64,000 bases of DNA from Desulfurococcales archaeon. Lineage in GTDB: Archaea; Thermoproteota; Thermoprotei_A; Sulfolobales; Desulfurococcaceae. Below are positions 35,964 to 54,271 of this stretch, one piece after another. The translations under genes were made by a program, and so were the position numbers. Numbering within the stretch: the first letter of the stretch is position 1; the number at the start of each line of letters is the position of its first letter. Below the pieces are notes generated by a model. It was not told the origin of the DNA, did no database searches, and saw only the letters and a list, made by a program, of their open reading frames with translations. The stretch is taken from contig JALVYU010000031.1 of assembly GCA_027022365.1 (NCBI GenBank), forward strand, positions 128,001 through 192,000. Reading direction: 5' to 3'.

Positions 35964-36602
35964 TTGACGGAGAGGCTACTGCCACCTAGGGAAGCATGCA
36001 AAAGGTTTGGAATAAGCTTCATTACTTTGAAGAGGTGGATTTACTCTGGCAAGATTAGGGCGGTCAGGACACCTACCGGCAGGTGGATGATACCAGAGAG
36101 CGAGATAGAGAGGATTATTAGTGGAAAAGTCGAAGTGGAAGAGGTTAGAGCAGTTATCTATGCTCGTGTGAGTTCTAGCGACCAGAGGGGCGACCTTGAA
36201 AGACAGATACAGTACCTCACACAGTACTGCTTTGCCAAAGGATATAGGGTTGTGGATGTTCTAAGCGACATAGCTAGTGGATTAAAAACCAACCGTAGAG
36301 GCTTAATGAAGCTCTTCAATTATGTGGTTAATAGACGAGTAGATGTTGTAGTTATCACCTACAAGGATAGATTAACTCGCTTCGGCTTCGAATATCTTGA
36401 GTACTTCTTCAAACAGTTTGGTGTAAAGATAGAAGCTGTTTATGGTGAAGAGCCGAGGGACGCTTACCAAGAGTTGGTTGAAGACCTATTAGCGATAGTA
36501 ACATCGTTTGCTGGTAAACTTTATGGCATGAGGAGTCATAAGAAGAAACGCTTGGTTCAGGGTTTCAAGAGTCTCCTAGAAGAGGTAGAGAAGAATGGCT
36601 AG
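35964..36602 (+). CDS. tnpA: IS607 transposase (MerR-like HTH + serine recombinase)
   Basis: N-terminal HTH, YARVSS catalytic motif, DRLTRFGFE, SFAGKLYG. Confidence 0.95.
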   Translation: MTERLLPPREACKRFGISFITLKRWIYSGKIRAVRTPTGRWMIPESEIERIISGKVEVEEVRAVIYARVSSSDQRGDLERQIQYLTQYCFAKGYRVVDVLSDIASGLKTNRRGLMKLFNYVVNRRVDVVVITYKDRLTRFGFEYLEYFFKQFGVKIEAVYGEEPRDAYQELVEDLLAIVTSFAGKLYGMRSHKKKRLVQGFKSLLEEVEKNG

Positions 36603-37896
36603 AGTAACTAGGACTGTCATAGTGGGGAGTACTAAGCTTCCTAGGAAAGTGTTCAGACTCCTCGTTGAGCTTGAGGGTATGTACCGCAACATAGTCGAGC
36701 AACTAGTAATGTATGCTATCAGGAATAGTGTTAAGAGTTTTATTAGGCTCAAGGCATTGAAGTACCATGAGATAAGAAACCTCTATCCACAACTACCTTC
36801 ACATTACATTTATACTGCATGTCAGGACGCTAGTACTAGGGCTAAAAGCTTTCTAAGGCTAAAGAAACTGGGCATAGCTAAGAGGGAGTACCCAGAGGTT
36901 AAGAAGGTTAGTATATGGCTTGACGACCACCTATGGAAGCCTGTTGGGTATACATTCGTTAGAATAGCTACTCACAAGGGATGGGTAACAATAGAGCTCG
37001 AGCCTCATAAACAGTATTGGAGATACATCAATAGAGGTTGGGAACTAGCTTCTGAGACCAAAATCAAGCTTGATAAGAGGAATAGACAACTCATAATTTA
37101 CTTAACCTTCGTTAAAGAGGTTGAAGAGTACAGCTCTAGGGGATACCTATCAGTTGATGTTAATGAAAATAACGTTACTATACTAGTCGACGGTGTGGCT
37201 TACTTATTCGAGACCAATATTGGGAGGCTTGTCCTAGGCTACTACTATCGTAGGAAGAGAGTACAGGAAAAATATGATAGACCCTATGGTAGGAAGTCAA
37301 GGATTAAAAAGAAGATTATGAGAAGGCTTAAGGAGAGGAGGAAGAAGATGGATATTAGGTGGAAGCTCGCTAGCATCATAGTTAGAGTTGCCTATGATAA
37401 GCGGTATGCTATTGTTCTTGAGAAACTGGGTAAGAGAGTAGCAAATAACATGATTGCTAGGATTAAGAATAAACAGCTACGTCACAGAATATTCCAAGCA
37501 TCCTTCAAAGGAATTCAGAGGGCGATAGAAGGGAAAGCTAGAGAGTATGGTGTACCAGTAATCTATGTGAACCCGAAGAACACCTCAAAACTATGCCCAG
37601 TACACAATGCACTAATAATCTATAATAATGGTTCTAGAATTGGGAGATGTAGTATTGGTGAAGAACTATGGCATCGCGACGTAGTTGCTTGTTGGAACCT
37701 CCTCCTTAAAGCCCTGCGGGGTGATGGGAGCAGTGCCCCAAGCCCCGTAGGGCTTATCCCCGTAGATGTGAGGCTAGTTCCGTTAGCCTCGAATGCCACC
37801 CATGACCCCACAACCCTGCCAAAAGGGTTATGGGCGAGGCGGAAGCCCCTACCGCTGATACAGAACGCTACAATCATAAACAAAATGAAGCGGTAG
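36595..37896 (+). CDS. tnpB: RNA-guided endonuclease TnpB
   Basis: RuvC D (SVDVNE), E (VLEKL), D (HRDVVA); TSKLCPVH zinc-ribbon region. Confidence 0.93.
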   Translation: MARVTRTVIVGSTKLPRKVFRLLVELEGMYRNIVEQLVMYAIRNSVKSFIRLKALKYHEIRNLYPQLPSHYIYTACQDASTRAKSFLRLKKLGIAKREYPEVKKVSIWLDDHLWKPVGYTFVRIATHKGWVTIELEPHKQYWRYINRGWELASETKIKLDKRNRQLIIYLTFVKEVEEYSSRGYLSVDVNENNVTILVDGVAYLFETNIGRLVLGYYYRRKRVQEKYDRPYGRKSRIKKKIMRRLKERRKKMDIRWKLASIIVRVAYDKRYAIVLEKLGKRVANNMIARIKNKQLRHRIFQASFKGIQRAIEGKAREYGVPVIYVNPKNTSKLCPVHNALIIYNNGSRIGRCSIGEELWHRDVVACWNLLLKALRGDGSSAPSPVGLIPVDVRLVPLASNATHDPTTLPKGLWARRKPLPLIQNATIINKMKR

Positions 37897-38327: not shown

Positions 38328-39110
38328 CTAAATAATGGGCACCAGGATATATCTGTTATTATATTTAATGATATCGAAATCTACTCCGTAGACCTGGCTC
38401 AACCTTTCTGGGTTGAGGGCTTCGCGGGGACTACCATATGTTTCGACTCTGCCCTTATTCAGTAATAATATCTTGTCGCAGTAAAGGGAAGCCATTAGTG
38501 GATCATGGAGGGTGACCATCGCACCAAGTATTCTTTCTTCCTCTACTAATTTTCTAATAAGGCTCATTGTTTTCACTGCATTAGATATATCTAGATGAGA
38601 TACCGGTTCATCCATTAATAATATCCTTGCCTCCTGGACGAGGGTTCTAGCGATCAGTACGAGCTGGAACTGGCCCCCACTGATCTCGGTTATGGCTTTA
38701 TCGGCGAGACTGCCTAGGCCTAAATCGTCGAGTACACGATATGCTTTGTCATAGTCTTTTCTCGAAGGCAAGGAGAACATCCCGTGGTGCGGGGCTCTGC
38801 CCATGAGGACGTAATCTATTACCTTATAGGGGAACACGATGTGGTGTTCCTGGGGAACGTAGCCGATGATCTTTGCGAGCCTCTTCGGGGGAATAGATGA
38901 TATATCCGTTCCCAGTACCTTGACCGTGCCTGTACCTCTAAGTATTCCTAGAAGTATCTTTAGCAGGGTTGTCTTGCCAGCCCCATTAGGGCCGAGGACG
39001 CCGAGTATCTCCCCCTTGTGTAGCTCGAAGGATACATTATCGAGGACTTTCTCGCCACCATTATATGAGAAGCTTAGGCCCTCTACCTCGATAATGGGAT
39101 TTACCTCCAT
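38328..39110 (-). CDS. Iron-chelate/cobalamin ABC transporter ATP-binding protein
   Basis: GPNGAGKT, YVPQEH, ISGGQFQ, DEPVSHLD. Confidence 0.93.
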   Translation of the reverse strand: MEVNPIIEVEGLSFSYNGGEKVLDNVSFELHKGEILGVLGPNGAGKTTLLKILLGILRGTGTVKVLGTDISSIPPKRLAKIIGYVPQEHHIVFPYKVIDYVLMGRAPHHGMFSLPSRKDYDKAYRVLDDLGLGSLADKAITEISGGQFQLVLIARTLVQEARILLMDEPVSHLDISNAVKTMSLIRKLVEEERILGAMVTLHDPLMASLYCDKILLLNKGRVETYGSPREALNPERLSQVYGVDFDIIKYNNRYILVPII

Positions 39111-40102
39111 GCTTTCCCAGCCCTCCTTAGCAGTATTATAAGTATGGGGGCACCCATGATCGTCGTCAATATACCTAAAGGGATAATCTGGCTCGTCATA
39201 GCTCTCGAGAGATCATCTGCTAGGACGAGGTATGTCCCTCCCAGGAAGAAGCTATAAGTGATGACCTGCCTTGAATCACTTCCTACCATGAGCCGTACAA
39301 TATGTGGTACCAATAGGCCGACCCAACCAATGATCCCTGCATAGGAGACGGCTGAGGCGGTGATTAATGCAGCTACACTAGCAAAGAATAATCTTTCGAG
39401 TACCGGGTTAGCACCAAGTGATCTCGCCTCATCGTCGCCGAGCGATAATATGTTTAGCCTCCACCTAGCCATTACGAGGACGATGCTACACGGGATAATG
39501 ATAAGCGTCATCCTGATTATATCCGGCCATTGGCCCGCCTGACCCACATCACCCATGAGCCAGAACACGATGGCTGCCACTTTATCCGGGGTTGGCGCGA
39601 AGTACTCCGCCAGGGAGAGCCCTGCAGAGAATAGTGCGTTCACAACTACTCCCGAGAGGACGAGCGATATTATTGATCCTCTGCCCCACCCCCACGCGAT
39701 CGCCACCACGATCAGATATGCTACTATAGCAGTAATCATCGCGACTAGCTCTACAGGGATGAATAAGGGCAGAAAAGCTAGGGCGATGGCTGCTCCAAGC
39801 GCCGCACCACTGGTTATACCTAGAATATAGGGGCTAACGAGCGGATTCCGCATCATGCATTGAAGGCTCGCGCCAGAAATGCTTAAGGCTATACCTATAA
39901 GCGCCGCCGCTAGCACCCGCGGTAATCTATAGTAGAGGACTATCCTGGCGGCCGCAGAGCCTAGTTGTGGGTTGAGGGTAAGAGCATTGAATAGTATTTG
40001 GAGAACCTTGGCTGGGGGGATTGGATACGGGCCTATGAAGAGCGATAATACTATGGCTGCGGGTAGGGAAAAAACGATCAGAATCTTATAGATGTTTTCC
40101 AT
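39101..40102 (-). CDS. FecCD/BtuC-family ABC permease
   Basis: RLPRVL, RNPLVSPYILG, GDDEARSLG, GIIGWVGLLVPH. Confidence 0.94.
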   Translation of the reverse strand: MENIYKILIVFSLPAAIVLSLFIGPYPIPPAKVLQILFNALTLNPQLGSAAARIVLYYRLPRVLAAALIGIALSISGASLQCMMRNPLVSPYILGITSGAALGAAIALAFLPLFIPVELVAMITAIVAYLIVVAIAWGWGRGSIISLVLSGVVVNALFSAGLSLAEYFAPTPDKVAAIVFWLMGDVGQAGQWPDIIRMTLIIIPCSIVLVMARWRLNILSLGDDEARSLGANPVLERLFFASVAALITASAVSYAGIIGWVGLLVPHIVRLMVGSDSRQVITYSFFLGGTYLVLADDLSRAMTSQIIPLGILTTIMGAPILIILLRRAGKAWR

Positions 40103-40106
40103 TGCG

Positions 40107-42206
40107 TCATCCCGTCGTAGCGGTTACGCTAGTGTAAGGGACACCGTACCATTCCTGATAATAACTGTTCGCTATCTCTGTAAAGTTAGTATTCGACCAA
40201 AGGCTCGGATAGAGCTTGATTGAGAGCCACAGTATAAATATTGATGCGCTGACACCCCAGTGCTCATAGTACGGCTCCTTGTATACTCTGCCATTCTTTA
40301 CCGCGTCAATACTCTTCAACGCCGGATTGTCTAGGATGTCTTTGGGGTCGTATCTGGCGTAATACCATATTATTATGACCTGGGGATTCCAGCCAATGAT
40401 CTTCTCTAGATCTACCGATACATAGTCTTTATTAGGGTAGTCCTTAGCGGCAACGTTTATCCCGCCAGCCAGGACTATGAAATCATTAACTGTTCCGCGG
40501 CCTCCCTGCACCATTGTTTCTTTGCTCCACAGATAAAGCACTCTAACCCTCTTATCACTAGGTATATCTGAAACTCTCGACTCCACCAATGCGATGATCT
40601 TGTCCATATCGTTTACTAATTGATAAGCCCTGCTCCTCTCATTGAATACTACTCCGAAGAGCCATATAAGCCTCTTAATATCGTTGAAACTATAGCACTG
40701 GACCTTGATAACCGGTATACCCTGGGCCTCTATTTCTTTCACAACTTTTTCGTTGTATGGCCACGTTATTACCACTTGTGGCTTGAGGGCCAGTAAGTCC
40801 TCTACATTGACCGAGAAGCTGCTTCCAGGTGATGGTGTCTTGGTTATGTTCGGGTATGCCTTCAGCATTAGGGGATTATATTTAGCGTATTTGGAGATAC
40901 CGACTACTTTGTCCATTGCGTGCAGGGCGAGAACTAGGGTATACGATATAAAGTCGACGGCCCTGGTGATCTTTGGCGGGAGCTCCACAGTTTCCCCTGT
41001 CATGTCCACTATTTTCATCCATTTAATGCTGTAGGAGGCGAATGCCTGCGCGGGTATGAATTCATGGTAGAAATGGGTGAACAGGTATTCTGCATCGTCT
41101 CTCCAGCTAATATCTTTAAATACGTCGGGATATAGTAGGGAGGCGATGTACTCTATACCAATTATACTTCTCGGCCCCCAGTCGAGAACTCCCCCTATTT
41201 CAGACCAGCATGGAACAATGTAGATACGGCCGCTTTTATAGGCGCTAAGGGCCTGCCATTTAGGATCACTCCTTATCTTCTCGATCACACTATTTATCGA
41301 GGATACAGATGATGTGACAAGTATGACGTCGGGGTTCCACGATGCCAGCGTCTCGAAGTCTATCTTAGGCCATTTCTCGTTCGGGAAATTCTTGAGCGCC
41401 AGGTTCACAGCACCGGCCTCTTCCACTGCGTGGCCCCAACTTGTGTTGGAGTAGAGGAGTATACTTCCTTTTATTAATGAGTATCCGTCGAGCAATACCG
41501 CCGATACCTTGTCCTTAACGCTACTGGCGAGGCTCTTGATTTTGTGATAGTGGGATGACAGGTATTCTGATAGCTCGTTTGCCTGGCTAGTATGTCCAGT
41601 TATTTCGCCGAGTATCTTGATCGCTTTTAGCTCGTCGTCGAAGCCATGCATGAATAAGCCAACAACTTTTATCCCCATCTGCTCTATCTTAGAAGCTATT
41701 TCCCCGGCTTTACCGTAGCCTACGTCCATGATTACAACGTCGGGCTTTAGAGCAGCGATCTCTTCTATGTTGACCCCGGTGAAAACACTTCCTATGGATG
41801 GTTTACTCCTAATATTCTCTGGAAGGTATTGGTCGTACTTGACGTACTTTCCTATCCCGACAATAAGGTTCCCAGCTCCTATTGCGAGGAGTGTTTCAGC
41901 CCAGTATGATTCTAGGACTACTATTCTTTCGACGGGCTTGTTGAAAACGATCTTTTTGCCCCTGAAATCCGTGACTATTATCGGTTTTATTTTTGATGTT
42001 TTGGTGGTTGTAGTGATGGTGTGTGGGGCTGTTGTGGTCGTTGTTGATGTGCTTGTCTGTCTCACAGTATTTATTGATGTTTGGGGAGCTGTTTTTGCGG
42101 GCTTGTTTATATACGTGTAGTATAGTGTTATACTGCTTCCTATACCGACTATTATTATTAGTATTATAAGCGCTGCAGCGGCCTTGGTGATCCCCTTGTA
42201 TTTCAA
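40107..42206 (-). CDS. Iron-chelate/tetrapyrrole substrate-binding protein with two tandem BtuF/FhuD-like domains
   Basis: Two copies of the xDxxG..V....RxV / NxE.I..L.P.VVI / WNP.VI pattern; start reassigned to TTG 42206 with GAGGTG RBS. Confidence 0.88.
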   Translation of the reverse strand: MKYKGITKAAAALIILIIIVGIGSSITLYYTYINKPAKTAPQTSINTVRQTSTSTTTTTAPHTITTTTKTSKIKPIIVTDFRGKKIVFNKPVERIVVLESYWAETLLAIGAGNLIVGIGKYVKYDQYLPENIRSKPSIGSVFTGVNIEEIAALKPDVVIMDVGYGKAGEIASKIEQMGIKVVGLFMHGFDDELKAIKILGEITGHTSQANELSEYLSSHYHKIKSLASSVKDKVSAVLLDGYSLIKGSILLYSNTSWGHAVEEAGAVNLALKNFPNEKWPKIDFETLASWNPDVILVTSSVSSINSVIEKIRSDPKWQALSAYKSGRIYIVPCWSEIGGVLDWGPRSIIGIEYIASLLYPDVFKDISWRDDAEYLFTHFYHEFIPAQAFASYSIKWMKIVDMTGETVELPPKITRAVDFISYTLVLALHAMDKVVGISKYAKYNPLMLKAYPNITKTPSPGSSFSVNVEDLLALKPQVVITWPYNEKVVKEIEAQGIPVIKVQCYSFNDIKRLIWLFGVVFNERSRAYQLVNDMDKIIALVESRVSDIPSDKRVRVLYLWSKETMVQGGRGTVNDFIVLAGGINVAAKDYPNKDYVSVDLEKIIGWNPQVIIIWYYARYDPKDILDNPALKSIDAVKNGRVYKEPYYEHWGVSASIFILWLSIKLYPSLWSNTNFTEIANSYYQEWYGVPYTSVTATTG

Positions 42207-42312
42207 GGTAGTGCACCTCGCATACTGAGGGGGTACATCTCTTTTAGAAATAAATACCCTGGCTCGGGGATATAAAATTGGTGCAGTACATCTCGATAAA
42301 TGGTGCACTAAA

Positions 42313-45300
42313 TTGACGAGGATATCCTTCATAATAGGCTATAGCGCATCAATGGCGGCAATGCTCGCGGAAATAGTACAAAAGCTATCTAGGAGATTCG
42401 GCTTCGAATACAAGATAATAACACCCTATGGTCTGGGGAGAGGAGATAAGGAATTCATAAAAGGATCGGATTTCATACTCATTTATTCCTCGAGGCTTCC
42501 AGACGAGTATGAGGATATTCTGGAGGAGATCAAGGACGAAAAGATGATTGCAGGGCTAGAGGATACACATTCTTATCTTACTAATATCGGAGCTGAGCAC
42601 TATACTCGCCTCGTCAAATACCTAAAGATAGGTGGACGTGAAAACCTAGAGTCGCTGGTCTATTACATACTCAAATTATTAGGCTACAATGTAGATGCTC
42701 CTCAGCCCAAGCCCGTTCCATGGCATGGAGTATATCACCCAGCCCTAGGCGTGTATAGGACAACCCAAGAGTATCTTCAAGCCTATAAGTTCTCTGATAG
42801 GCCCCTAGTAGGTATACTATTCTATAGGAATGACTGGCTCTATGGAAGAACCCGTCTCGTAGACGAGCTCGTCAAAGCAATAGAGGCCGAGGGCCTCGGC
42901 GTTCTCCCTGTTTTCACGTACGGTTTCAAAGACAAATACCTGGGAACACCATCATCCGAGGACACTATAAGGGAGTATTTCATACAGGACAACAAATCGA
43001 TAATAGACGTACTAATCAATCTCACGAGTTTCTTCATACTAGACCATGGCAGGAGCAGGGAGTGGAGCGTTAAAGGCTATGAACTTGCCAGTGGACTGCG
43101 TCTACTAAAGAAAATAAACGCACCAGTGCTCGAATACCTGACCATGTATGATAGGAGCCCCGAGCAGTGGAGGGATGATCCAAAGGGATGCGGGTACATG
43201 ACACTAGTATATAGGATAAGCATGTCCGAAGTCGATGGAGCGATAGAACCAATACCGGTTGCCGCAACCAGGCTGAATGAGTACGGGGGCAAAGACATAG
43301 TGCCTCTGCGAGACCAAATAAGGATTGTTGCTAGAAGGATCAAGAAATGGGTTAGACTAAGACATAAACCACCGAGTGAGAGAAGGATAGCGATCATACT
43401 GATAAATCCGCCGTGCAAGGGCCTGGAAGCGAATGTTGCGGTGGGCTTCGGCCTGGATGTCCCCGAGAGCGTTGTCAAGTTCCTCAAGAAGCTGAAGGAG
43501 GCAGGCTACGATGTCGGTTATGAAATCCCGGAAACGGGAGAGGAACTGATAAAGATGATCATGGAGAAAAAGGCGTTAAGCGAGTTCCGATGGACATCTG
43601 TCGAGGACATAGTCACGAATGGCGGAGCGCTGGACATCCTCCCCCTCATCAAGTACCTCGAATACTATCGAGAACTGCCTGAGAAGGCCAGGAGGGAGAT
43701 AGAATCCTCGTGGGGCGACCCCGTTAGAGTGGTTAGGGAGAAGCCGCCGGGGCTGGCGGGCATGATCCATGACGGCGGCTTCGTGATCCCCGGCCTCAGG
43801 TTCGGCAATGTGGTCATTATACCGCAGCCTAAAAGAGGGTGTGCTGGCCCTAGGTGTGATGGAACAGTATGTAAGATACTTCACGATCCAAATGTCCCGC
43901 CGCCCCATCAATGGCTTGCCGTCTACTGGTGGATAACTAGGGTATTTGACGCGGATATTATGATTCACTTCGGGACGCACGGTTACCTCGAGTTCCTGCC
44001 CGGAAAGAACGCTTGTCTATCGAGTTCTTGTTGGCCACTGATAAGCATCGATGACACGCCCCACCTATACGTCTACGTGGTATCAAACCCTATGGAGGGC
44101 TCGATCGCTAAGCGCCGCGGGATGGCGGCACTAGTAGATCATCTCTATCCGCCCATGGCTGCTGCCGACACAATGAGTGAGCTCGACGACCTTGTCAACC
44201 AGTATCTTAAAGCCAAGAATATGGGGGACGAGACGCGCAGGAAAGAGCTACTGGAGATGATAAAGGAGCTGGCGGTGAAGCACGATATAAAGCTACGAAA
44301 AGGTATGGGTGCGGACGAGATCATAGAGGCTGTGCACAAGAAGCTCCACATAATAGGAGAAACAGACATAAATCTCGGACTACACGTCCTAGGCAGGCCG
44401 CCGACCCCTGTATCGAAACTGGCTAAATACGTGGTAACAATAGATACAAGACTCCCCCCAGAACAATCGCTCGTGAAAAATATTTCTCGCATCATAGGAG
44501 TAAAGTACGGGGAACTCGACGATAACCCCATGAAAATCCATGAAAAACTAGGGATACCGTATAGAGAACTGAAAAAGAAGATCAGGAAGGCCGCCGAAAA
44601 AATACTGGAGAAAACCCTTGAGTCGAAGGAACAAGCAGATCATCTACGGATACTCGAGGAAATTATTATGGAGTATTTTCCAGGAGCAAGGATTAGATCC
44701 TTAAATGACTGTATATATGCCCTTAAAAACGCTCTACGAATAGCTGAGCTGCTAACGGATACGGACAAAGAGATGGCCTCCCTTCTAGACGGAGTAGCAG
44801 GAGGATACATTGAACCAGGCCCTTCCGGCAACCTATACAGGGGTAAGATCAACGTACTCCCAACTGGGAGGAACTTCTACCTCCTAGACCCACGGACACT
44901 CCCAACAAGAGCAGCCTGGATGATAGGCACAAAGTCAGCTGATCTTCTCATTAAGTACTATGTTGAGAAGCATGGGAGAATGCCTGAGACCATAGGACAA
45001 GTACTATGGAGTATTGACGCCTTTAAGGCTGATGGGGAGCAGCTGGCCCAGATACTATACCTGCTAGGCGTCGAGCCTGTATGGGATGACGGAGGAAATG
45101 TCGTGGATCTGAAGCCAATACCGCTGGAGGAGCTGGGCAGGCCGAGAATAGATGTCCTGGTGAGAATAAGTGGTATAGTTAGAGATCTCCTACCAAACTA
45201 TATAGAGCTGATCGATAGGGCTGTCTCCATCGTGATCAGTCTGGATGAGCCCCCCGAAATGAACTTTCCGAGGAAACACTATCTCGAAGACGTAGAGAAG

Positions 45301-46173
45301 CTAGTTAGCCTCGGCTACAGTAGGGGAGAGGCCGAAGAGATCGCGAGGCACCGTGTTTACGGTTCACCCCCAGGTAGTTATGGAGCAGGGGTAAATCTGG
45401 CCGTAGAGGCATCCGCGTGGAAGGACAGCGGTGATCTTGCCAAGATATGGGTGCAGTGGAGCGGGTACGCCTATACCCGAAGCAAATACGGTGTCGAGTC
45501 CCACGAGCACCTCGTCCTCAGCCTCAGGCGCGTGGACATGGTTAACAGGAACCATGTAAGCGACGAACACGACATACTGGGCTGTTGCTGTTACTTCTCA
45601 TACCATGGAGGATTCTACAATGCTGCTAAGACGCTGTCGGGCCGTGAGGTAGAAGCTGTGACTATAGACACCCGTAACGTGTACAGTTTAAGGATCAGGG
45701 GGATGGATGAGGAAATAGAGCGTGTGGTCCGGGCCAAACTACTAAATGATCAATGGATAGCTGAGATGAAGAAGCACGGCTACCGTGGTGCAAGCGAGTT
45801 TCAGCGTAAAATACTCCATTTCTATGGATGGGCCTCGGTGTCGGGGCTAGCCGAAGACTGGATGTTCGAGAAAATCGCCGAGAAATATGTTCTGGATGAG
45901 GAAATGAGGGAATGGTTCCTAGAGCACAACAAGTGGGCTCTAGAGGAGATCACTAGGAGGCTAATCGAGGCGGGACTTAGAGGGGTCTGGAAAGCACCTT
46001 CCGAGCTCCTAGATAAATTAAGACAGGTATATTCCGAGATAGAGGGTTATCTCGAAGAGGAACTCGGTGCTGGAGAAGTACAGGGAGGCGCCATAGACGT
46101 GGTGGGCTATGATGAAGTAGAGGAATGGAGGGAGAAGATGGAGAGAATCGATAAAATACTGGAAGAGATATAG
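42313..46173 (+). CDS. cobN: CobN/ChlH-family chelatase large subunit
   Basis: 1286 aa; HFGTHGYLEFLPGK, PTGRNFY, GRPRIDV, YGAGV, MKKHGYRGA. Confidence 0.92.
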   Translation: MTRISFIIGYSASMAAMLAEIVQKLSRRFGFEYKIITPYGLGRGDKEFIKGSDFILIYSSRLPDEYEDILEEIKDEKMIAGLEDTHSYLTNIGAEHYTRLVKYLKIGGRENLESLVYYILKLLGYNVDAPQPKPVPWHGVYHPALGVYRTTQEYLQAYKFSDRPLVGILFYRNDWLYGRTRLVDELVKAIEAEGLGVLPVFTYGFKDKYLGTPSSEDTIREYFIQDNKSIIDVLINLTSFFILDHGRSREWSVKGYELASGLRLLKKINAPVLEYLTMYDRSPEQWRDDPKGCGYMTLVYRISMSEVDGAIEPIPVAATRLNEYGGKDIVPLRDQIRIVARRIKKWVRLRHKPPSERRIAIILINPPCKGLEANVAVGFGLDVPESVVKFLKKLKEAGYDVGYEIPETGEELIKMIMEKKALSEFRWTSVEDIVTNGGALDILPLIKYLEYYRELPEKARREIESSWGDPVRVVREKPPGLAGMIHDGGFVIPGLRFGNVVIIPQPKRGCAGPRCDGTVCKILHDPNVPPPHQWLAVYWWITRVFDADIMIHFGTHGYLEFLPGKNACLSSSCWPLISIDDTPHLYVYVVSNPMEGSIAKRRGMAALVDHLYPPMAAADTMSELDDLVNQYLKAKNMGDETRRKELLEMIKELAVKHDIKLRKGMGADEIIEAVHKKLHIIGETDINLGLHVLGRPPTPVSKLAKYVVTIDTRLPPEQSLVKNISRIIGVKYGELDDNPMKIHEKLGIPYRELKKKIRKAAEKILEKTLESKEQADHLRILEEIIMEYFPGARIRSLNDCIYALKNALRIAELLTDTDKEMASLLDGVAGGYIEPGPSGNLYRGKINVLPTGRNFYLLDPRTLPTRAAWMIGTKSADLLIKYYVEKHGRMPETIGQVLWSIDAFKADGEQLAQILYLLGVEPVWDDGGNVVDLKPIPLEELGRPRIDVLVRISGIVRDLLPNYIELIDRAVSIVISLDEPPEMNFPRKHYLEDVEKLVSLGYSRGEAEEIARHRVYGSPPGSYGAGVNLAVEASAWKDSGDLAKIWVQWSGYAYTRSKYGVESHEHLVLSLRRVDMVNRNHVSDEHDILGCCCYFSYHGGFYNAAKTLSGREVEAVTIDTRNVYSLRIRGMDEEIERVVRAKLLNDQWIAEMKKHGYRGASEFQRKILHFYGWASVSGLAEDWMFEKIAEKYVLDEEMREWFLEHNKWALEEITRRLIEAGLRGVWKAPSELLDKLRQVYSEIEGYLEEELGAGEVQGGAIDVVGYDEVEEWREKMERIDKILEEI

Positions 46174-46212
46174 CTTGATTGGTACACAGTCTAATGATAA
46201 TAGGTGCAGATA

Positions 46213-48117
46213 ATGGGTTATTCGACCAGAATAACTGTCTTCCCGTTTACGGCGATAGTGGGGCTAGATGATGCTAAGACAGCACTACTCGCCGTTGCCG
46301 TGAACCCCCTCATAGGAGGCGTACTTCTCAGGGGAGACAAGGGAACAGGTAAGACGACACTGGTAAGATCATTAGCGAACCTACTCCCGGAGATCAAGGT
46401 AGTCGCGGACTGCCCGTTCAACTGTGACCCGGAAAACCCCAGCATGATGTGCGATAATTGTTACAGGCGGTGGAGACGGGGAGAAAAACTACCCGTAACC
46501 ACACGAAAGATGCGCGTAGTCGATCTCCCCTTAAGTGTTACTCCGGACAGATTGATAGGGACGATAGATGTAGAGAAGTTCCTCAGAGAAGGAGTAAAAG
46601 CAGTCAGCCCTGGACTATTGGCCGAGGCAAACAGAAATATACTCTACATAGATGAAGTAAACCTTCTCGACGACTACATAGCTGATCTAATACTAGATGC
46701 CGCGGCATACGGCTGGAACATCATTGAAAGAGAACATGTTTCCTTCAAACACCCCTCAAGATTCATACTAGTTGGGAGTATGAACCCCGAGGAAGGCGAG
46801 CTCAGGCCCCAGCTACTGGACAGGTTCGGCCTAGTGGTAGATGTCAATGCTCCAATGGATCCAGAATTGAGAGCAGAGATAGTTAGGCGTGTCGAGGAAT
46901 ACAGTATCGACCCCATAGCGTTCTACAAAAAATATGAGCCGCTCGAAAACGAACTCCGTGAAAAAATAGCACGAGCACGGAAAATACTGCGCGAAGTAAC
47001 CATAGACGATGAACTACTCAGAGCAGTCGCTGAGAAAATAGCAGAGATGAAGATAAGGACCTGCAGGGCGGAGATAACTGTTGTTAGGACGGCTAAGGCA
47101 CTAGCAGCGCTGGATGGCCGGAGAAAAGTTAGCGAGGACGATATAGAGAAAGCCATGAAACTAGCCCTACCCCATAGGATAAAGCTGAACCCCTTCGAAG
47201 AAGCGGGAAAAAGAGAACGCCCTTTCGAGCAAAAATCTTCCGGGCAGACTAAACCACATAGTCATAACCATCATTACTCCAAGGACTATAATCTGGCTCA
47301 ACAAGGAGGAGGGGGAAATAGTCCAGGTAGCGGGAAAGAGCTGAGGCTAGGCTCGCTAAGACCTAGTACCTCGCTACATATCATTCCTATAAGGAGGGCT
47401 AGTAGCAGAAAATGGATGGATTATGGAAGGAGAAGCAGGAAAACGTTTAGGACTAGAATAGGGGGTTTCGTCGGAGCTCCTATAGGTTATATCTACCCTG
47501 CCCCGAGACCAAGAGACATAGACCTCGTAGGCACTCTCATCGCATCAACGATCATGGGAGATCGTGGTAAGTGTCTCGCCGAGAAAATAAGGCGTTGCCC
47601 CGTACCTGTCCTGACTATGATCTGTCTGGATGCTAGCGGGAGCATGAATTACCGGAAAAGAATAATGATCGCGAAGGCGATCGCATATATGATCACTAGG
47701 AGAAGCTATACGCTAAAAACATGGTTGTCGCTCCTTGCCTTTAGAGGTGAAGGCGTTAAGGAGTATATTCCGCCTACTAGGAACTACAGAAAAATAATGG
47801 ATTTGATCGAGAAGATCCCATCAGGTAGAAAAACACCATTATCCGCGTGCCTATATCGAGTGCTTGAGGAAGTATCTATCTTTCGTAAAAAATACAGGAA
47901 TTCTGAGGCAGAGGTCTTCCTCATCACCGACGGCAAAGCCAACGTCTCAATTACTGGTAAGAATATTAAGAGTGAACTAGTGGGCCTAGCCAGGGAGATT
48001 AGGAGGAGGAGAATAAGACTCTATATTATTGATCCGAGAGGGAGAACAGTAGATCCCGGCATTGACTATATAAAATTGATAGCTTACCATTCGGGTGGAA
48101 AGGTGATCAGGATCTAA
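46213..48117 (+). CDS. chlD: ChlI/ChlD-type chelatase subunit (AAA+ domain, linker, vWA)
   Basis: FPFTAIVG, GDKGTGKT, YIDEVNLL, MNPEEGELRPQLLDRFG; vWA MIDAS DASGS, TPL, ITDG. Confidence 0.9.
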   Translation: MGYSTRITVFPFTAIVGLDDAKTALLAVAVNPLIGGVLLRGDKGTGKTTLVRSLANLLPEIKVVADCPFNCDPENPSMMCDNCYRRWRRGEKLPVTTRKMRVVDLPLSVTPDRLIGTIDVEKFLREGVKAVSPGLLAEANRNILYIDEVNLLDDYIADLILDAAAYGWNIIEREHVSFKHPSRFILVGSMNPEEGELRPQLLDRFGLVVDVNAPMDPELRAEIVRRVEEYSIDPIAFYKKYEPLENELREKIARARKILREVTIDDELLRAVAEKIAEMKIRTCRAEITVVRTAKALAALDGRRKVSEDDIEKAMKLALPHRIKLNPFEEAGKRERPFEQKSSGQTKPHSHNHHYSKDYNLAQQGGGGNSPGSGKELRLGSLRPSTSLHIIPIRRASSRKWMDYGRRSRKTFRTRIGGFVGAPIGYIYPAPRPRDIDLVGTLIASTIMGDRGKCLAEKIRRCPVPVLTMICLDASGSMNYRKRIMIAKAIAYMITRRSYTLKTWLSLLAFRGEGVKEYIPPTRNYRKIMDLIEKIPSGRKTPLSACLYRVLEEVSIFRKKYRNSEAEVFLITDGKANVSITGKNIKSELVGLAREIRRRRIRLYIIDPRGRTVDPGIDYIKLIAYHSGGKVIRI

Positions 48118-48331: not shown

Positions 48332-49003
48332 TTGCGGGCCGCGATTTTGCTCAATATTTCATCCGATTATAGTTACAGGAAAATTATATTTAGTGACATA
48401 GACGGGGTCTCGGTGATCGAAAAGGTTTATGAAAATGTGGAGAACGTTTTTGATGAAGCAAATATTGTTGGTGGAGGCGAACTGTACGATGAGGTGACAG
48501 AATTTCTCGGAGTAGAAGGTATTAGAGACGAGTATGAAGAGCCGTATTTCTTATCTAATCTTGCCATAGCCATCCGCAAGCTGGGCGATGTATTTGTTTT
48601 CTCACCGAATATGCCGTGTATAAACCGTAGATTCGTTGAAGTGCTTATACGGATATGGAGGCCTGGAGGATATCTTATTGTAGCTCCTTGTTGGCAAGAC
48701 AATAGTGTCGTATACGGCCAAGCAATATATTCTAAGCTGCTCATCAAAGATATTGAGCAACTAATTGAAGCGAAGAAAGATATTTCCGATCTCTACGATC
48801 TCCATCCGGACAAAACATATGTGCTCTACCTGGACAGATTACCTATAGCTTATACGTCTAGCACAGTAACTATAGATAATGAAGAGGACTTGAAAATGTT
48901 CAAAGAACTACTTGGCGTCAAGGACTCTTTAGAATATGCATGTAAGGAGATGTTCAAAGAACTATATCTTAGAAGAAGCCGCCGGTTCTTTTCGCCCTCT
49001 TAG
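48332..49003 (+). CDS. Divergent MobA/CobY-like nucleotidyltransferase-fold protein
   Basis: MRAAILL start, NMPCI (cf. DMPF), IDNEEDL (cf. NINTPEDL); the glycine-rich GG motif is absent. Confidence 0.55.
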   Translation: MRAAILLNISSDYSYRKIIFSDIDGVSVIEKVYENVENVFDEANIVGGGELYDEVTEFLGVEGIRDEYEEPYFLSNLAIAIRKLGDVFVFSPNMPCINRRFVEVLIRIWRPGGYLIVAPCWQDNSVVYGQAIYSKLLIKDIEQLIEAKKDISDLYDLHPDKTYVLYLDRLPIAYTSSTVTIDNEEDLKMFKELLGVKDSLEYACKEMFKELYLRRSRRFFSPS

Positions 49004-49588: not shown

Positions 49589-49750
49589 GGCTAATCCTCT
49601 CTCCTTTTAGGATTTTTCTACAATTCCCTTATTATTAGTAGAGCACGGCGGCAGACATGTTATTTCTGGGAAAAACGTGGGGTTAGATTTTTATAATCCG
49701 ATTGCCTTTTTTCTTCAAGTAAATGAAAAACGTAAATGGGGAGAGTACTC

Positions 49751-51988
49751 ATGAGATCTAAATACACACGTGCCCTGTCAAAGGGGGCTGCCGCGGCTAT
49801 AGCTATAATTATAATTATAGGTATTATAGCTGGAGCATATTACTATATGCAGAGCCAGAAGCCCTCTGCAACCACTACCACTTCCCCGCCCAGTACTACC
49901 ACTCAGTCGCCCACCCAGACGGCTAGCCCGACCACTACCTCCACTGGTACCCAGACCACTACCTCGCCGCCCAGTCAGAAGCCGCCTATTCACAACACAG
50001 TCATATATCTTATACAGAACGATGCTACAACGAGAGTACTAACGATCAAGAAGGGAGTGGCGGATCTTGGTGTGGTGCCAGCCGACCAGCTGGACGCATT
50101 AGCTGGCACCACTTATGACGGGACGAACTTCAAGATCATAAAGCAGGAGATGGGGCTAAGCCTCACCATAGTCTATATTGTGCTCAACACTTACAAGCCG
50201 CCATTCAACAACCTGCTGGTAAGACAAGCACTAGCCTACGCTACCCCGTACAAGATGATCTGGGAGACCGTATACGCCGGCACCGTGACCAACCTAGTAG
50301 GAGTAATACCTAAGGGCATGCTGGGATGGACCGATTATAAGGTCATACAGTACAAGTTCGATCTAGCTAAGGCCAAGGAGCTGATACAGAAGAGCGGCAT
50401 CAACCCATCAAACTACGTCATAACCATCTATTACAACCAGGGCAACACCCAGAGAGCAAAGATCGCTAGCCTGCTATCGCAGTACTGGGGACAGTTAGGA
50501 TTCAAGGTCATGGTACAATCACTATCATGGCCACAGCTACTCGAGAAGACCTCTAAGCCCGAGTTCGATGTCTACATTATCGGATGGGCGCCCGACTACC
50601 TAGACCCCGACGACTATGCTGGACCACTAGTAGGCGGTGGAACAAAGTTCGACTCAGTAGAAGTATATCAGGTCAACTCGGCGGCTGATGTATCCAAGTA
50701 CCTGAGCAAGGCGACTGTTATCGACACAAAGGACGCCTACGTAGTAGTAGGCCCTGCGGGCACTGGCGCAAGCGTAAGCATCAGTGGCAAACCAATCGTT
50801 GTCGTCCAGTACAAGTTGTCAGCGAAGCAGATACCTATACCGAACTGCACTGCCTTCAGTAGTATTGACCCATCATTCTATAGGAACGTAACACTAGATG
50901 CTCTAATCCAGGCAGGCAGGTACGCCGTCGAGTACAAGGTCAGAGAAGCGATCTATCAGGCGGTCGAGAGGATATCGAACGAGCAACTACCATGCATATG
51001 GCTTGGCCAGTACATGGTTGTACGTGACTACTGGGACTGGATTCAGGGCAGATACTACAACCCGATCCTAGCCGAGAGATGGGATCTGATATGGGAGAAG
51101 CCCATACCTAACCCGCCTAGCATCGGTATAGGGAACTACGTCAATGACGCCCACACCCTGGTGATAGCCACCATTGGATGGCCGCAGAGCTTCGACCCAG
51201 CCAAGAGCTACGAGACCTTCGGATGGGAGATCTTCCACGAGATAGGCGACACCCTAGTAACCTACTGGAAGGCCGATACCACACACATAGTCCCGGACGC
51301 TGCAGTTGCATGGGCATACAGCAAGAACGGTACTGAGTGGTTCTTCGTAATAAGAGACGGGCTAAAGGCGTATGACCCCAACAGCGGCAAGGTATACCCG
51401 GTCAACGCGACTGACGTATTGTTCACTATATGGAGGATCGCGAGACTGGGTCTAGACCCATCATGGATGATAACCACATTCATAGACGTCAATGCTAGCA
51501 GAGTATACACCGAGAACGAATTTGATCAAATACTCGCTAAGGGAGGTATCTACGCTACCTATAATGGCAAGACCGAGGAGGTAAAGAGCCTATCACAGCT
51601 ACTACAGCTCTTCGGATATAGTGGCAAGACCGCAGGAGTAGTGATGCTCAAGCTATACAAGCCATACTCAGCCATACTCAACATCCTGGCCGACCCGTTC
51701 ACAATGATAATACCCGCCAAGTACCTCTTCGATAATGTACCGGAATTAAAGGGCAAGTACGAGGAGGCAATGAAGGCAGCACAGTGGGGTAAGAACCCAG
51801 AGGCCTGGATCAAGTACATAGGTACAGGCGACAAGGAGCCAACCCACCAGTTCCTACACACACACCCGATTGGAACCGGGCCATACTACGTGGCCAGCTT
51901 CAAGCAGGACTCATACATCATACTAAAGCTCAACCCGTACTACTGGAACGCAACACTCTGGTACCAGCTGTACGGCTATAAGCCCTAA
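49751..51988 (+). CDS. Peptide ABC transporter substrate-binding protein (family 5, apparently circularly permuted)
   Basis: TM plus Thr-rich linker; PFNNLLVRQALAYA, GWAPDYLDPD, SFDPA, GTGPY. Confidence 0.9.
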   Translation: MRSKYTRALSKGAAAAIAIIIIIGIIAGAYYYMQSQKPSATTTTSPPSTTTQSPTQTASPTTTSTGTQTTTSPPSQKPPIHNTVIYLIQNDATTRVLTIKKGVADLGVVPADQLDALAGTTYDGTNFKIIKQEMGLSLTIVYIVLNTYKPPFNNLLVRQALAYATPYKMIWETVYAGTVTNLVGVIPKGMLGWTDYKVIQYKFDLAKAKELIQKSGINPSNYVITIYYNQGNTQRAKIASLLSQYWGQLGFKVMVQSLSWPQLLEKTSKPEFDVYIIGWAPDYLDPDDYAGPLVGGGTKFDSVEVYQVNSAADVSKYLSKATVIDTKDAYVVVGPAGTGASVSISGKPIVVVQYKLSAKQIPIPNCTAFSSIDPSFYRNVTLDALIQAGRYAVEYKVREAIYQAVERISNEQLPCIWLGQYMVVRDYWDWIQGRYYNPILAERWDLIWEKPIPNPPSIGIGNYVNDAHTLVIATIGWPQSFDPAKSYETFGWEIFHEIGDTLVTYWKADTTHIVPDAAVAWAYSKNGTEWFFVIRDGLKAYDPNSGKVYPVNATDVLFTIWRIARLGLDPSWMITTFIDVNASRVYTENEFDQILAKGGIYATYNGKTEEVKSLSQLLQLFGYSGKTAGVVMLKLYKPYSAILNILADPFTMIIPAKYLFDNVPELKGKYEEAMKAAQWGKNPEAWIKYIGTGDKEPTHQFLHTHPIGTGPYYVASFKQDSYIILKLNPYYWNATLWYQLYGYKP

Positions 51989-52038: not shown

Positions 52039-54210
52039 CTACCCAAGCCTAATATTCCCTATTTCTTCATAGTTCTCAAGGCTAAGAACAAGTATTTCAC
52101 TCGGCGACACAAGGTACAGCTTGTCACCAATATAGAGCGAGCGTCCACCATTGTTTAGCTCAACTATCTTAACTAGTCCTAGCTCGTCGTTAGCATAACT
52201 CATTATCAAGAAGCCGAAGCATCTGTATCCCCATACGCCAGTGTTTGTTGTCGATCCCGAAGACCAAGCCCAGCCGTGGCTCAACGGAATTATGAATACT
52301 TTCTTCTCGGGAACCAAGGTAAAGGCGTGGTAGTCATAGAGTACAGGCGATGTTACTAGTTTTCCGATACTGGCCCTTGAAAGCTGGGATACATGTTTTG
52401 GATCGCTGATATTGTATAGTGATATAGTTAGATTACCGCTGTCAACACCGATTCCAAGCAATATGTCGTGTCCAAGGGGATGCAGGTAGACGTTATATCC
52501 CGGTATCTTGAGATAACCTATTATCTCCGGGTGATATGGGTCTGAAACGTTAATAGCGAATAATGGGTCTACTCTACGATAGGTTACGAGAATATAGATG
52601 TCGTTGATCAGTCTCCCCGTCTTAATTGTTTCTCCAACAGCTATATCGTCAAGTCTTGAAACCATTTTTAGATTTTCTAAGTCTACAATTGTTAGGGCAT
52701 TAGATCCCTTCTTGGTCTTTGTCCATATCCACACGTCTCTAATTATGCTAGGATAATTGGTGGAGTTGATCTCATGTGTGTAAGTCTGTTTTTCACCGTT
52801 AGGTAGAGTTATCGTAATTCCAATGTCCTTCTCTACATTTCCGATCTTATATGTGTAAATGTTTATAACTGGTGTATATTCCACGTAGTTGGTTGCAACT
52901 ATAAAGTATTTGCCCCTGTACTCTTCCATGCAGAACTGGTTCTGCAGATATCCCTTTACCTCGAAGCTCCCTCTATACTTGATTGACAAACCGTTTATAG
53001 CGAAAACATAGAATCTTGATTTTGCGGTGAAAGATTCTTGTTTAACTAGTTTATTAATTGTCAGGGCAAGATTACCGGCCTCACTCTGAGGTAATGATTT
53101 AACGTACTGCCTGAAGAGATTATAGGCAGTCATTACCGTGTAATACGTATTGTTTTTGAGTAGCTCTGATATTTTTTCGGCCAGGCTTGCTGGTAACATA
53201 TGTAGGGTTGCTTCGAGAACATGTTTGATAGATATTAAATAGATGTTTGAAGCCGGCGAGAATACAACGAGATGTTTATAGGACATATATATCTTTGAAG
53301 CTGCCCCCGTCATTATCGATAATACATTGTATTTTAGGCTTGTCAGGTTCGCAGCGAAGATATTGGTATAGTATTCTGGAGGATTATAAACTAGCAGTAT
53401 CCTGTCTATCGGGAATGGAATTCCATTAATAATTGGTATCTCCACAGGTTCAACGGGTTGACTAGTAACTACGTATAGGATTCTCCGGTAGAGACGAGCA
53501 CTGATCAGGCGGCCCGTGATATTATATGTCTGTAGGAGATATGGGTGCTCGGGCTCTGTTATGTTTATTAATTTAATAATAGTTTGCTCACTATTGAATC
53601 TTCCAACGGATATTAGTCTTGTTAGGGGCCTAATAACGCCGCGATTACTCATTATTACCGCTAGGATATCCTGATCTAGGAAGATACCTCTAATGGTATG
53701 GTTAAACCTGATTACTGATAACACCTTCTCATGTTTCGCATCGACGACATACGCTTTATCATTATTGACAACGACTATTATCTTTCCATTAGTCTTGACA
53801 ATATCTGGTTCATCAATACCTTTCACTTGCACATTTGTCGAGGAATATCCTTGCGCGGTCTCGCTATATCCCATCTTAATAGTGCCTTCGATCTGATATA
53901 ACAGAGGTAGTGTAGTGATTAGTGGTCTTATAGTAGTTGATGTGCCAGCACTGGATGTTCTCTCCACGTTTTCAATAGTTTTTAAGTATGATATTAGATC
54001 GGTATAGGATTTGAATTTCTGTAGCTGTGTAGCATTTATTGGCTGGGGGATCATACTAGCTGGACTAGTACTTTGGGGTGGAGATGGGGTTATGACTGGT
54101 GTTGTTACCCTAGTTCCGATTTGGCTTGGCGCCAGATAGAGCCCCATAATGGGTATGAGGATTCCTGCCATGAGTGCTATGGCGGCAGATAATATCAGAC
54201 GCTTATCCAT
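52039..54210 (-). CDS. Membrane-anchored secreted beta-propeller domain protein
   Basis: YSSTNVQVKGIDEPDIVKTNG, VTYRRVDPLF, GYLKIPGY..YLHP, YDYHAF. Confidence 0.85.
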   Translation of the reverse strand: MDKRLILSAAIALMAGILIPIMGLYLAPSQIGTRVTTPVITPSPPQSTSPASMIPQPINATQLQKFKSYTDLISYLKTIENVERTSSAGTSTTIRPLITTLPLLYQIEGTIKMGYSETAQGYSSTNVQVKGIDEPDIVKTNGKIIVVVNNDKAYVVDAKHEKVLSVIRFNHTIRGIFLDQDILAVIMSNRGVIRPLTRLISVGRFNSEQTIIKLINITEPEHPYLLQTYNITGRLISARLYRRILYVVTSQPVEPVEIPIINGIPFPIDRILLVYNPPEYYTNIFAANLTSLKYNVLSIMTGAASKIYMSYKHLVVFSPASNIYLISIKHVLEATLHMLPASLAEKISELLKNNTYYTVMTAYNLFRQYVKSLPQSEAGNLALTINKLVKQESFTAKSRFYVFAINGLSIKYRGSFEVKGYLQNQFCMEEYRGKYFIVATNYVEYTPVINIYTYKIGNVEKDIGITITLPNGEKQTYTHEINSTNYPSIIRDVWIWTKTKKGSNALTIVDLENLKMVSRLDDIAVGETIKTGRLINDIYILVTYRRVDPLFAINVSDPYHPEIIGYLKIPGYNVYLHPLGHDILLGIGVDSGNLTISLYNISDPKHVSQLSRASIGKLVTSPVLYDYHAFTLVPEKKVFIIPLSHGWAWSSGSTTNTGVWGYRCFGFLIMSYANDELGLVKIVELNNGGRSLYIGDKLYLVSPSEILVLSLENYEEIGNIRLG

Positions 54211-54271
54211 AAGTCCCACCTGAGGATGATTCTTGGTTTCATTAGATATATTATGAAGCCTTGGACAGACG

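Follow-up and report, generated by a model that had tools for sequence, protein, structure and literature searches.

A stretch of 64,000 nucleotides from a Desulfurococcales archaeon (GCA_027022365.1, contig JALVYU010000031.1, positions 128,001 to 192,000 of the forward strand), called the window here and numbered from its first letter, carries a CobN-like chelatase gene back to back with the genes of an ATP-binding cassette (ABC) importer. The locus consists of two divergent transcription units, with the importer genes on the minus strand and the chelatase genes on the plus strand, and all its frames are intact:

38328-39110, minus strand: ABC transporter ATPase of a type II importer (BtuD/FecE/HmuV-like); PF00005, 107 bits
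39101-40102, minus strand: FecCD-family permease (BtuC-like); PF01032, 276 bits
40107-42206, minus strand: binding protein of 699 amino acids, membrane-anchored, with two class III domains; two Peripla_BP_2 (PF01497) stretches, 219 bits
42207-42312, no strand: divergent spacer and promoter region of 106 bp, with boxes conserved in 5/5 aligned loci
42313-46173, plus strand: CobN-like large chelatase subunit of 1286 amino acids, member of a Cys-rich ('CCC') clade; PF02514, 1174 bits
46204-48117, plus strand: fused ChlI/ChlD motor of 637 amino acids, AAA+ followed by a linker and VWA; TIGR02442, 575.2 bits

The 106-bp divergent layout of the CobN-like and ChlI/ChlD genes against a FecCD-type importer had been noticed in the initial annotation, and all five genes lie where it had placed them. 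The chelatase probably acts on an imported metal compound, since the host makes neither heme nor B12 yet keeps the chelatase beside an uptake pump. Our preferred reading, with a probability of roughly 0.45, is that the five genes form a salvage module, in which an imported chelate, probably a metallo-tetrapyrrole, gives up its metal or has it exchanged.

Tetrapyrrole synthesis and use in the host

The families of the tetrapyrrole pathways were searched across the whole host genome (1.74 Mb, rated 99.97% complete). HemB, CbiX, the CobB/CobQ-type amidotransferase, CbiB and CobS (PF00490, PF01903, PF07685, PF03186 and PF02654) have no match in it, and the sole PF00590 tetrapyrrole-methylase homologue is diphthine synthase (Dph5), with 213.8 bits to TIGR00522 against a cut-off of 114.3. 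What was first noted for the window, that corrin genes are lacking, hence holds for the entire genome. Genome-wide, neither a second CobN-like gene (PF02514) nor a second ChlI or ChlD (tblastn) was found. De novo B12 synthesis is excluded because the cob, cbi and hem families searched reveal no pathway in a genome of this completeness, which agrees with the earlier proposal that the chelatase does not serve this route.

The only tetrapyrrole users found in the genome are corrinoid users, i.e. one MtgC/MtbC-like corrinoid protein and three B12-binding radical-SAM proteins. Cytochrome bd, cytochrome b and siroheme-enzyme families have no match in the genome, these being three families beside which other heme proteins may exist. 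A forward, cofactor-making reaction of the chelatase thus has no evident use in this genome, since the post-cobalt B12 steps are lacking and no heme or siroheme users were found.

The CobN-like protein and its motor

The CobN-like protein scores below the cut-offs of the CobN equivalog models, with 1244 against 1468 for NF004646, 802.5 against 822.05 for TIGR02257 and 963 against 1926 for NF004643, and also below that of the BchH model TIGR02025 (777.3 against 829). Its scores with solved structures are 545 and 485 bits for CobN, 472 for ChlH and 388 for HmuS (9d26). The nearest proteins are 98, 79, 76 and 67% identical to it, and the nearest named relatives are the 'CobN' proteins of Thermococcales (~51-52%), Archaeoglobus (51%) and Methanococcus maripaludis (44%).

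We placed the protein in a FastTree phylogeny of 37 rows, with anchors taken from annotated plasmid records: HmuS of Aureibacter, BchH of Roseobacter, and CobN of Azotobacter, Paracoccus, Deinococcus and Haloferax (pHV3). The Aureibacter HmuS lies in a complete operon of hmuY, receptor, hmuS and exbB-like genes, the Roseobacter BchH in a bch cluster, and the Azotobacter and Paracoccus CobN adjoin cobW and cobG or precorrin genes. The anchors are few and long-branched, and the tree shows separation rather than a rooted order. Three groups were obtained, each with a support of 100: the Azotobacter, Paracoccus, Deinococcus and Haloferax CobN; HmuS, BchH and the archaeal 'LDH-type' proteins; and all 25 proteins with the cysteine signature described below, the window protein included. 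The window protein therefore stands apart from the CobN of aerobic cob clusters, which answers the phylogenetic comparison with CobN, BchH and HmuS that had been proposed at first.

Residues were compared through alignments to the solved chains and to the anchor sequences. The window protein has HFGTHG at residues 552-557, which fits the superfamily motif HFG(T/A)HG and is identical to the HmuS motif. HxGKHG is found in three of the four aerobic-B12-linked CobN compared (M. tuberculosis 7c6o, 9uk9 and Azotobacter), and Paracoccus has HVGAHG. The Cys-bearing insert G-C510-AGPR-C515-DGTV-C520 is in neither of the two solved CobN chains nor in HmuS, and the same is true of C368. Residues 1089-1093 read LGCCC, with Cys-Cys-Cys at 1091-1093, in the columns where HmuS has LSLDH and BchH has TTVDH; the four CobN aligned at this site have DSDD, DSDD, DSND and LAAD. 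The window protein thus lacks the HmuS motif LSLDHxxEFMGG, having LGCCCYFSYHGG in the columns where the Aureibacter HmuS anchor has LSLDH..EFMGG, and it lacks the CobN active-site motifs HxGKHG and DS(D/N)D, having HFGTHG and GCCC.

In HmuS, His-538 of HFGTHG and His-1209 of LSLDH are reported to face each other across the cavity and to hold a cation, and Phe-502 and His-506 to lie in the loop gating the cavity (PMC12583661). Our alignment matches C520 with Phe-502, the invariant H524 with His-506 and C1093 with His-1209, which puts three extra cysteines in the gating loop and three at the metal site. We refer to C368, C510, C515, C520, C1091 and C1092 as the cysteine signature. It is present in 80 of the 83 full-length CobN-like open reading frames (ORFs) of 81 loci, i.e. 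the window and 80 loci from a scan of species genomes. It is missing from three second paralogues, those of L009 and L010 with an HmuS-like DLDH..EF.GG and that of L047 with a CobN-like DSDD. The four extra cysteines might hold an iron-sulfur (Fe-S) cluster. The literature searched, a limited collection, yielded no description of this signature.

Two further features of the family were observed. A second archaeal CobN-like type has HLGTHG or HVGTHG, an HmuS-like DLDH..EF.GG and few cysteines, and groups with HmuS and BchH in the tree. It occurs alone in other HemB-lacking Desulfurococcaceae (L093:9514-13275, L094:9534-13172, L095:3317-7006). In loci of Archaeoglobus and Thermoplasmata it is a second paralogue, with the Cys-type gene on one side and chlID on the other (L009:13828-17385; L010:3445-6999). 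The Cys-type CobN itself is split near residue 790 into adjacent genes of ~800 and ~510 amino acids in many relatives (G105, G147, G151, G161, G209, G210, G264, G265, P0062 and about 60 others).

The CobN-like protein is predicted from its sequence to be cytoplasmic. A simple Kyte-Doolittle scan shows no strong transmembrane helix: the hydropathy of the protein peaks at 1.69, whereas the HmuS anchor reaches 2.74 in its C-terminal helix. The window system differs from HmuS in compartment and energy source, since it has no such helix while HmuS is described as membrane-bound, NADH-dependent and ATP-independent (PMC12583661). The number of methionines is 8 in 120 amino acids and 9 in the HmuS anchor, so the count does not discriminate a Met-rich insertion. 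An HmuS-like identity, to which the initial annotation had alluded, is hence not supported: the His motif and the membrane anchor of HmuS are lacking, and an ATP motor that HmuS does not need is kept.

The motor protein has its Walker A (GDKGTGKT, residue 44), Walker B (YIDEVN, 148) and metal-ion-dependent adhesion site (DASGS, following DxSxS, 476) all intact. It stays below the equivalog cut-off of TIGR02442 (575.2 against 779.45 bits) and matches TIGR02030 at 406 bits. An insert with four cysteines, CxxxC-x8-CxxC, at residues 70, 74, 83 and 86 (window 46411-46461) lies within the AAA+ domain and is kept in 54 of the 65 ChlI/D ORFs of the loci and in the Haloferax ChlID. The motor may bind zinc or an Fe-S cluster there.

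Importer, spacer and distribution

The importer has the components of a type II ABC importer in one operon, namely a FecCD permease, an ABC ATPase and a class III binding protein. Every NCBIfam match of the importer is under its cut-off, including the best matches of the ATPase, which are corrinoid and heme ABC ATPases. The binding protein starts with a transmembrane helix (hydropathy peak 2.6, residues 10-28), followed by a Thr-rich linker and two Peripla_BP_2 domains, domain 1 at ~41211-41924 and domain 2 at ~40284-40946, the two halves being ~27% identical. Domain 1 is closest to the first domain of Thermococcus and Archaeoglobus binding proteins, and domain 2 to single binding proteins of deltaproteobacterial clusters (up to 45% identity), so the Desulfurococcales protein joins two subfamilies. 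Such tandem two-domain binding proteins were also found in the loci L007, L008, L009 and L011 and in three genomes of the host family (G093, G095 and G082). The scores of the two domains with solved binding proteins are as follows:

4ovk (ligand unknown): domain 1, 90 bits; domain 2, 98 bits; best solved match of both domains
Helicobacter CeuE/NiuB (Ni(II)-(L-His)2): domain 1, 36 bits; domain 2, 96 bits
MolA (molybdate or tungstate): domain 1, 57 bits; domain 2, 96 bits
BtuF (cobalamin): 28-38 bits, both domains
IsdE and ShuT (heme): 29-36 bits, both domains

The label of a tetrapyrrole-type importer, which had been given to this system at first, is not established by these scores, the binding protein being nearer to 4ovk, NiuB and MolA than to BtuF or the heme binders. 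NiuB is reported to bind Ni(II)-(L-His)2, and NiuBDE to carry nickel, cobalt and bismuth (PMC5140060). Two FecCD permeases (PF01032) are encoded in the whole genome. The second one belongs to an importer on another contig (C26; L089:5260-9009), directly after the diphthine synthase gene, that consists of a one-domain binding protein, a permease and an ATPase. This second system is a candidate corrinoid or heme importer because its binding protein is nearer to ShuT than that of the window. In the Methanothrix loci L027, L041 and L052, four to six tandem binding-protein paralogues stand beside one Cys-type CobN, which hints at many related ligands.

The length of the 106-bp spacer rests on two TTG starts, both supported by the alignment of relatives: the TTG of the CobN-like gene is unchanged in 5/5 aligned relatives, and the start column of the binding protein is ATG in two more distant loci. 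The spacer holds four (T)GGTGCAC(C)-like boxes (GGTGCACC boxes), at 42211-42217, 42232-42237, 42280-42286 and 42302-42308, and AT-rich stretches at 42243-42257 and 42270-42277 that might be TATA-like. All 5 aligned loci, whose protein identity goes down to 56%, retain the boxes, whereas the remaining spacer sequence has diverged. Genome-wide the GGTGCAC box has 85 single matches and no second cluster, and only in the spacer do two or more strict copies fall within 130 bp. Such conservation, with no clustering elsewhere in the genome, suggests that the locus has a regulator of its own.

Control by a cobalamin riboswitch was considered and rejected, as an Rfam scan of six bacterial loci gave no tie to corrinoids. 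No cobalamin riboswitch lies upstream of any of these six clade clusters (131 kb), and the lone riboswitch of the scan is 9 kb downstream of cobN in L018. A Clostridium CobN cluster is flanked by two TwoAYGGAY RNA motifs of about 69 bits each (L067:2402-2556 and 17374-17528).

The linkage of the CobN-like gene to the importer is conserved far beyond close kin. We identified the neighbours in the 81 loci by comparison with the window proteins and by ORF clustering; 31 loci that extend for 6 kb or more to each side served as a stringent subset. An importer part (binding protein or FecCD permease) is present in 59 of the 81 loci and in 27 of the stringent 31, and the binding protein and FecCD permease occur together in 47/81. 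ChlI/D is found in 48 loci (22 of the stringent subset), and importer and ChlI/D together in 39 (21 of the stringent subset). The linkage predicted for relatives is therefore upheld. The archaeal loci come from Desulfurococcales, Thermococcus, Archaeoglobaceae, Thermoplasmata, Methanothrix, Methanoperedens and Syntrophoarchaeum, and the bacterial ones from Deltaproteobacteria, Nitrospirota, Bacillota, Thermodesulfobacteria and other anaerobic bacteria. A CobN-like gene in an anaerobe had been called unexpected, but the clade is typical of anaerobes. The closest of the 80 loci is that of a Desulfurococcales metagenome-assembled genome, at 76% identity. Other recurring neighbours are an ABC-2 exporter (29 loci), a TonB-dependent receptor (21 loci, all bacterial), a Gate-domain membrane protein (12 loci, Thermococcus and Archaeoglobaceae among them) and an energy-coupling factor (ECF)-type module with CbiQ (3/81 loci). 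The heme/hemoglobin receptor family is the best match of the receptors in 4/4 bacterial clusters tested, with 178-259 bits.

Among 274 genomes of the class with a completeness of 80% or more, a CobN-like gene is present in 43 and HemB in 114, and 29 of the 43 CobN-bearing genomes have no HemB. In 17 genomes the CobN is at least 44% identical to that of the window, and 15 of these 17 lack HemB. The 44% line is our own choice, set by identity and not by the cysteine signature, and these figures are counts rather than a statistical test, as the genomes are related. Within the family, 13 of the 53 other genomes have any CobN-like gene, and in four of these 13 the identity to the window CobN reaches 44% or more. 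Two other genomes of the genus bear CobN, and both have retained the complete locus, with proteins 88-96% identical.

Function of the locus

The idea of salvage is itself not new because it is already in print. Rodionov 2003, as cited by Rocha 2019 (PMC6460266), defined BtuS as a third CobN-like type and predicted a role in metalloporphyrin salvage. HmuS was proved to be a heme dechelatase by Nath 2025, where the role of the archaeal homologues is called unclear (PMC12583661). Cobalamin salvage by the haloarchaeal CobN-ChlID is a speculation of Pfeiffer and Dyall-Smith 2021 (PMC8305020), and in Methanosarcina barkeri two 'BtuS' proteins are reported to rise with certain iron and sulfur sources (PMC10846266).

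The window system shares features with each of the known chelatase systems and differs from each in others. With HmuS/BtuS of Bacteroidota (9d26, hmuYRSTUV) it has in common the PF02514 fold and the identical HFGTHG, the tie to uptake rather than biosynthetic genes, and the occurrence in tetrapyrrole auxotrophs. The two differ in clade, in the metal site (LDH with His-1209 against Cys-Cys-Cys), in the C-terminal membrane helix of HmuS where the window protein has no strong helix, and in their partners, which are HmuY, a TonB-dependent receptor and ExbB-like genes in the HmuS operon, and an ABC importer and a ChlI/D motor in the window. The aerobic CobNST (7c6o, 9uk9) resembles it in length, in the conserved Cys573, in the AAA+/VWA motor and in giving the best structure scores, whereas the window has a Cys-rich gating-loop insert and a fused ChlI/D-type motor, and is without cob genes, cobW and a source of hydrogenobyrinic acid diamide. 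The Mg-chelatase ChlH/BchH has the HFG.HG motif and a ChlI/ChlD-type motor as well, but the window has one fused motor protein instead of two and CCC instead of the VDH of BchH, in a host without protoporphyrin supply and without bch or chl genes. In Haloferax volcanii pHV3, CobN likewise adjoins a single ChlI/D with the same 4-Cys insert, but this CobN is 32% identical, groups with true CobN, has a DSSD motif and lies inside the cbi cluster of a B12-making organism. As for the importer, a FecCD permease, an ABC ATPase and a class III binding protein are common to BtuCD-F, HmuUV-T, NiuBDE and the window, which differs in having a tandem of two unlike binding domains on a single membrane anchor.

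We propose the following mechanism for the salvage module. The type II ABC importer, loaded by the binding protein with its two unlike domains, would import a metal chelate, for which a metal-bearing tetrapyrrole, e.g. heme or a different metalloporphyrinoid, is the most probable candidate. The cytoplasmic CobN-like protein would bind the chelate in its central cavity, and the fused ChlI/ChlD AAA+ motor with ATP would drive the metal out of the ring or exchange it. The metal might then go to a thiolate-rich site formed by the Cys-Cys-Cys and the conserved His of HFGTHG, with electrons perhaps coming from an Fe-S cluster on the four extra cysteines around the cavity. The locus would then serve to provide metal in a sulfidic vent habitat rather than to make cofactors. 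Of 13 sequencing runs listed for this DNA none is of RNA, and the DNA runs are labelled as hydrothermal vent metagenomes (5 studies, one of them perhaps the source). The analysis itself shows which genes are present, that no tetrapyrrole pathway was found, that the linkage is conserved, that the clade is separate, that residues of the active site are altered and that the chelatase has no strong membrane helix. The class of substrate, the identity of the metal, the direction in which the reaction runs and the Fe-S cluster are what we infer. Salvage is supported by the host genome, which has no endogenous substrate and no match to the tetrapyrrole pathway families. It is also supported by analogy, as every characterised relative acts on tetrapyrroles and HmuS shows that the fold can run in reverse (PMC12583661). 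Further points in its favour are the missing use for a forward reaction, the conserved linkage, the lack of HemB in most CobN-bearing genomes of the class, the best matches of the bacterial receptors to the heme/hemoglobin family together with the ABC-2 exporters, and the position of the cysteines at the cavity.

Several observations weigh against the removal of metal from an imported tetrapyrrole. HmuS needs no ATP, and the retained ChlI/ChlD motor fits metal insertion, the known role of this motor. The binding domains are nearer to Ni-(His)2 and molybdate binders (96 bits) than to BtuF (28-38) or heme binders (29-36), and the binding protein of the second FecCD system is more ShuT-like (56 bits) than that of the window. 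All matches of the bacterial receptors to the heme/hemoglobin family are under the cut-off of 316.85. The Methanothermobacter 'CobN1', a homologue that may belong to another clade, is reported to be abundant only under nickel limitation and points to nickel (PMC12350162). The lack of riboswitches counts only against a corrinoid role. Finally, the papers searched contain no biochemical data on any member of the clade.

Nickel or cobalt acquisition is an alternative that we regard as rather unlikely. Here the importer would take up a small chelate in the manner of NiuBDE, and the CobN-like protein and ChlID would extract the metal, e.g. for hydrogenase maturation, with no tetrapyrrole involved. 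The 96 bits of binding domain 2 to Helicobacter CeuE/NiuB, the high level of Methanothermobacter CobN1 only under nickel limitation (PMC12350162) and the ECF-type module with CbiQ in 3/81 loci favour it, and the Cys-Cys-Cys site would suit soft metals. However, the ligand of a class III binding protein cannot be read from 25-30% similarity, the scores of MolA and of an unliganded structure are just as high, and the Methanothermobacter protein may or may not belong to the clade. Every characterised member of the fold, moreover, binds a tetrapyrrole in its central cavity, and both the His motif of the cavity and the His of the gating loop are kept. Still less likely in our estimate is salvage by forward chelation, in which an imported metal-free or wrongly metallated macrocycle would receive cobalt (or iron or nickel), e.g. 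a corrinoid complete but for its cobalt, which would be turned into cobalamin. The ChlI/ChlD motor is known only from metal insertion, the host uses corrinoids without making them, the bit scores are slightly nearer to the CobN structures (545, 485) than to ChlH (472) or HmuS (388), and cobalamin salvage has been suggested for the haloarchaeal CobN-ChlID (PMC8305020). Against it, the CobB/CobQ-type enzyme, CbiB and CobS are unmatched, and therefore only a finished metal-free cobalamin would be usable. The three families tested include no heme or siroheme users, the six bacterial clusters scanned have no upstream cobalamin riboswitch, and the CobN-type HxGKHG and DS(D/N)D motifs are replaced.

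The two remaining explanations are much less probable. The locus could be a recently transferred cassette without a settled role in the host, its adjacency to the importer being inherited rather than functional. The spread is patchy indeed (any CobN-like gene in 13/53 other family genomes, in four of them reaching 44% identity), and the ATPase gene is closely followed by an IS607-like element. We nevertheless consider this very improbable, given that all frames are intact, that both other CobN-bearing genomes of the genus keep the locus at 88-96% protein identity and that the promoter boxes persist in relatives with as little as 56% protein identity. The automatic name CobN implies an ordinary late cobaltochelatase of de novo B12 synthesis, and the Pfam CobN/Mg-chelatase domain, the NCBIfam CobN models as top matches and the names of close relatives all agree with that name. 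This explanation is hardly credible: every CobN equivalog score is under its cut-off, the 99.97%-complete genome has no corrin pathway, and the clade is separate from the CobN of aerobic cob clusters.

The locus comes close to a natural knockout experiment: its host makes no tetrapyrroles and has just two such importers, and even so the chelatase is retained, together with its motor and an importer of its own, under a single private operator. The signature of four extra cavity cysteines and Cys-Cys-Cys at the metal site separates a large clade of anaerobes from CobN, ChlH and HmuS. We speculate, with considerable doubt, that this Cys-rich clade represents a fourth functional class of class I chelatases, i.e. 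a cytoplasmic, ATP-driven and probably Fe-S-dependent reverse chelatase that would remove iron, nickel or cobalt from imported metallo-tetrapyrroles. Such a class would account for many orphan 'CobN' genes of methanogens, Thermococcales and Desulfurococcales. If metal is removed, metal acquisition in sulfidic, anoxic habitats would be seen differently, with a widespread and so far unrecognised route in anaerobic archaea and bacteria. Hundreds of 'cobaltochelatase' annotations and the calls of B12 producers in metagenomes would then have to be read differently, and the known remit of the ChlI/D motor would change. If metal is inserted instead, the locus would represent a new cofactor salvage step.

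The neighbouring genes of the window are as follows. A gene for a MobA-like nucleotidyltransferase (48332-49003, plus strand; PF12804, 39.5 bits; MobA model 62 bits against a cut-off of 164) begins 214 bp downstream of chlID and has the same position in both same-genus genomes. With the window protein as query it has no match in the G082 locus, and its place in the five-gene unit is uncertain. CobY, the archaeal cobinamide-phosphate guanylyltransferase, presumably belongs to the same Pfam family. The IS607-like pair past the ABC ATPase gene (35964-37896) consists of a serine recombinase with a helix-turn-helix domain and a TnpB/Cas12f-like gene. The window does carry the 2-oxoacid:ferredoxin oxidoreductase (POR-type) genes mentioned in the initial annotation. 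An Opp/Nik-type ABC system lies a few kb downstream of the locus (49736-51988 and 54959-57090), with two permeases and a family 5 binding protein of 750 amino acids that has weak NikA-like matches. Beta-propeller proteins recur near CobN-like genes: a PF09826 protein is encoded in the window (52039-54219), propellers occur in the ECF-linked bacterial loci, and a propeller like those of pyrroloquinoline quinone (PQQ) proteins lies beside the Haloferax chlID-cobN, the sites outside the window being L099:2268-3506, L017:3540-5240 and L074:7835-9547.

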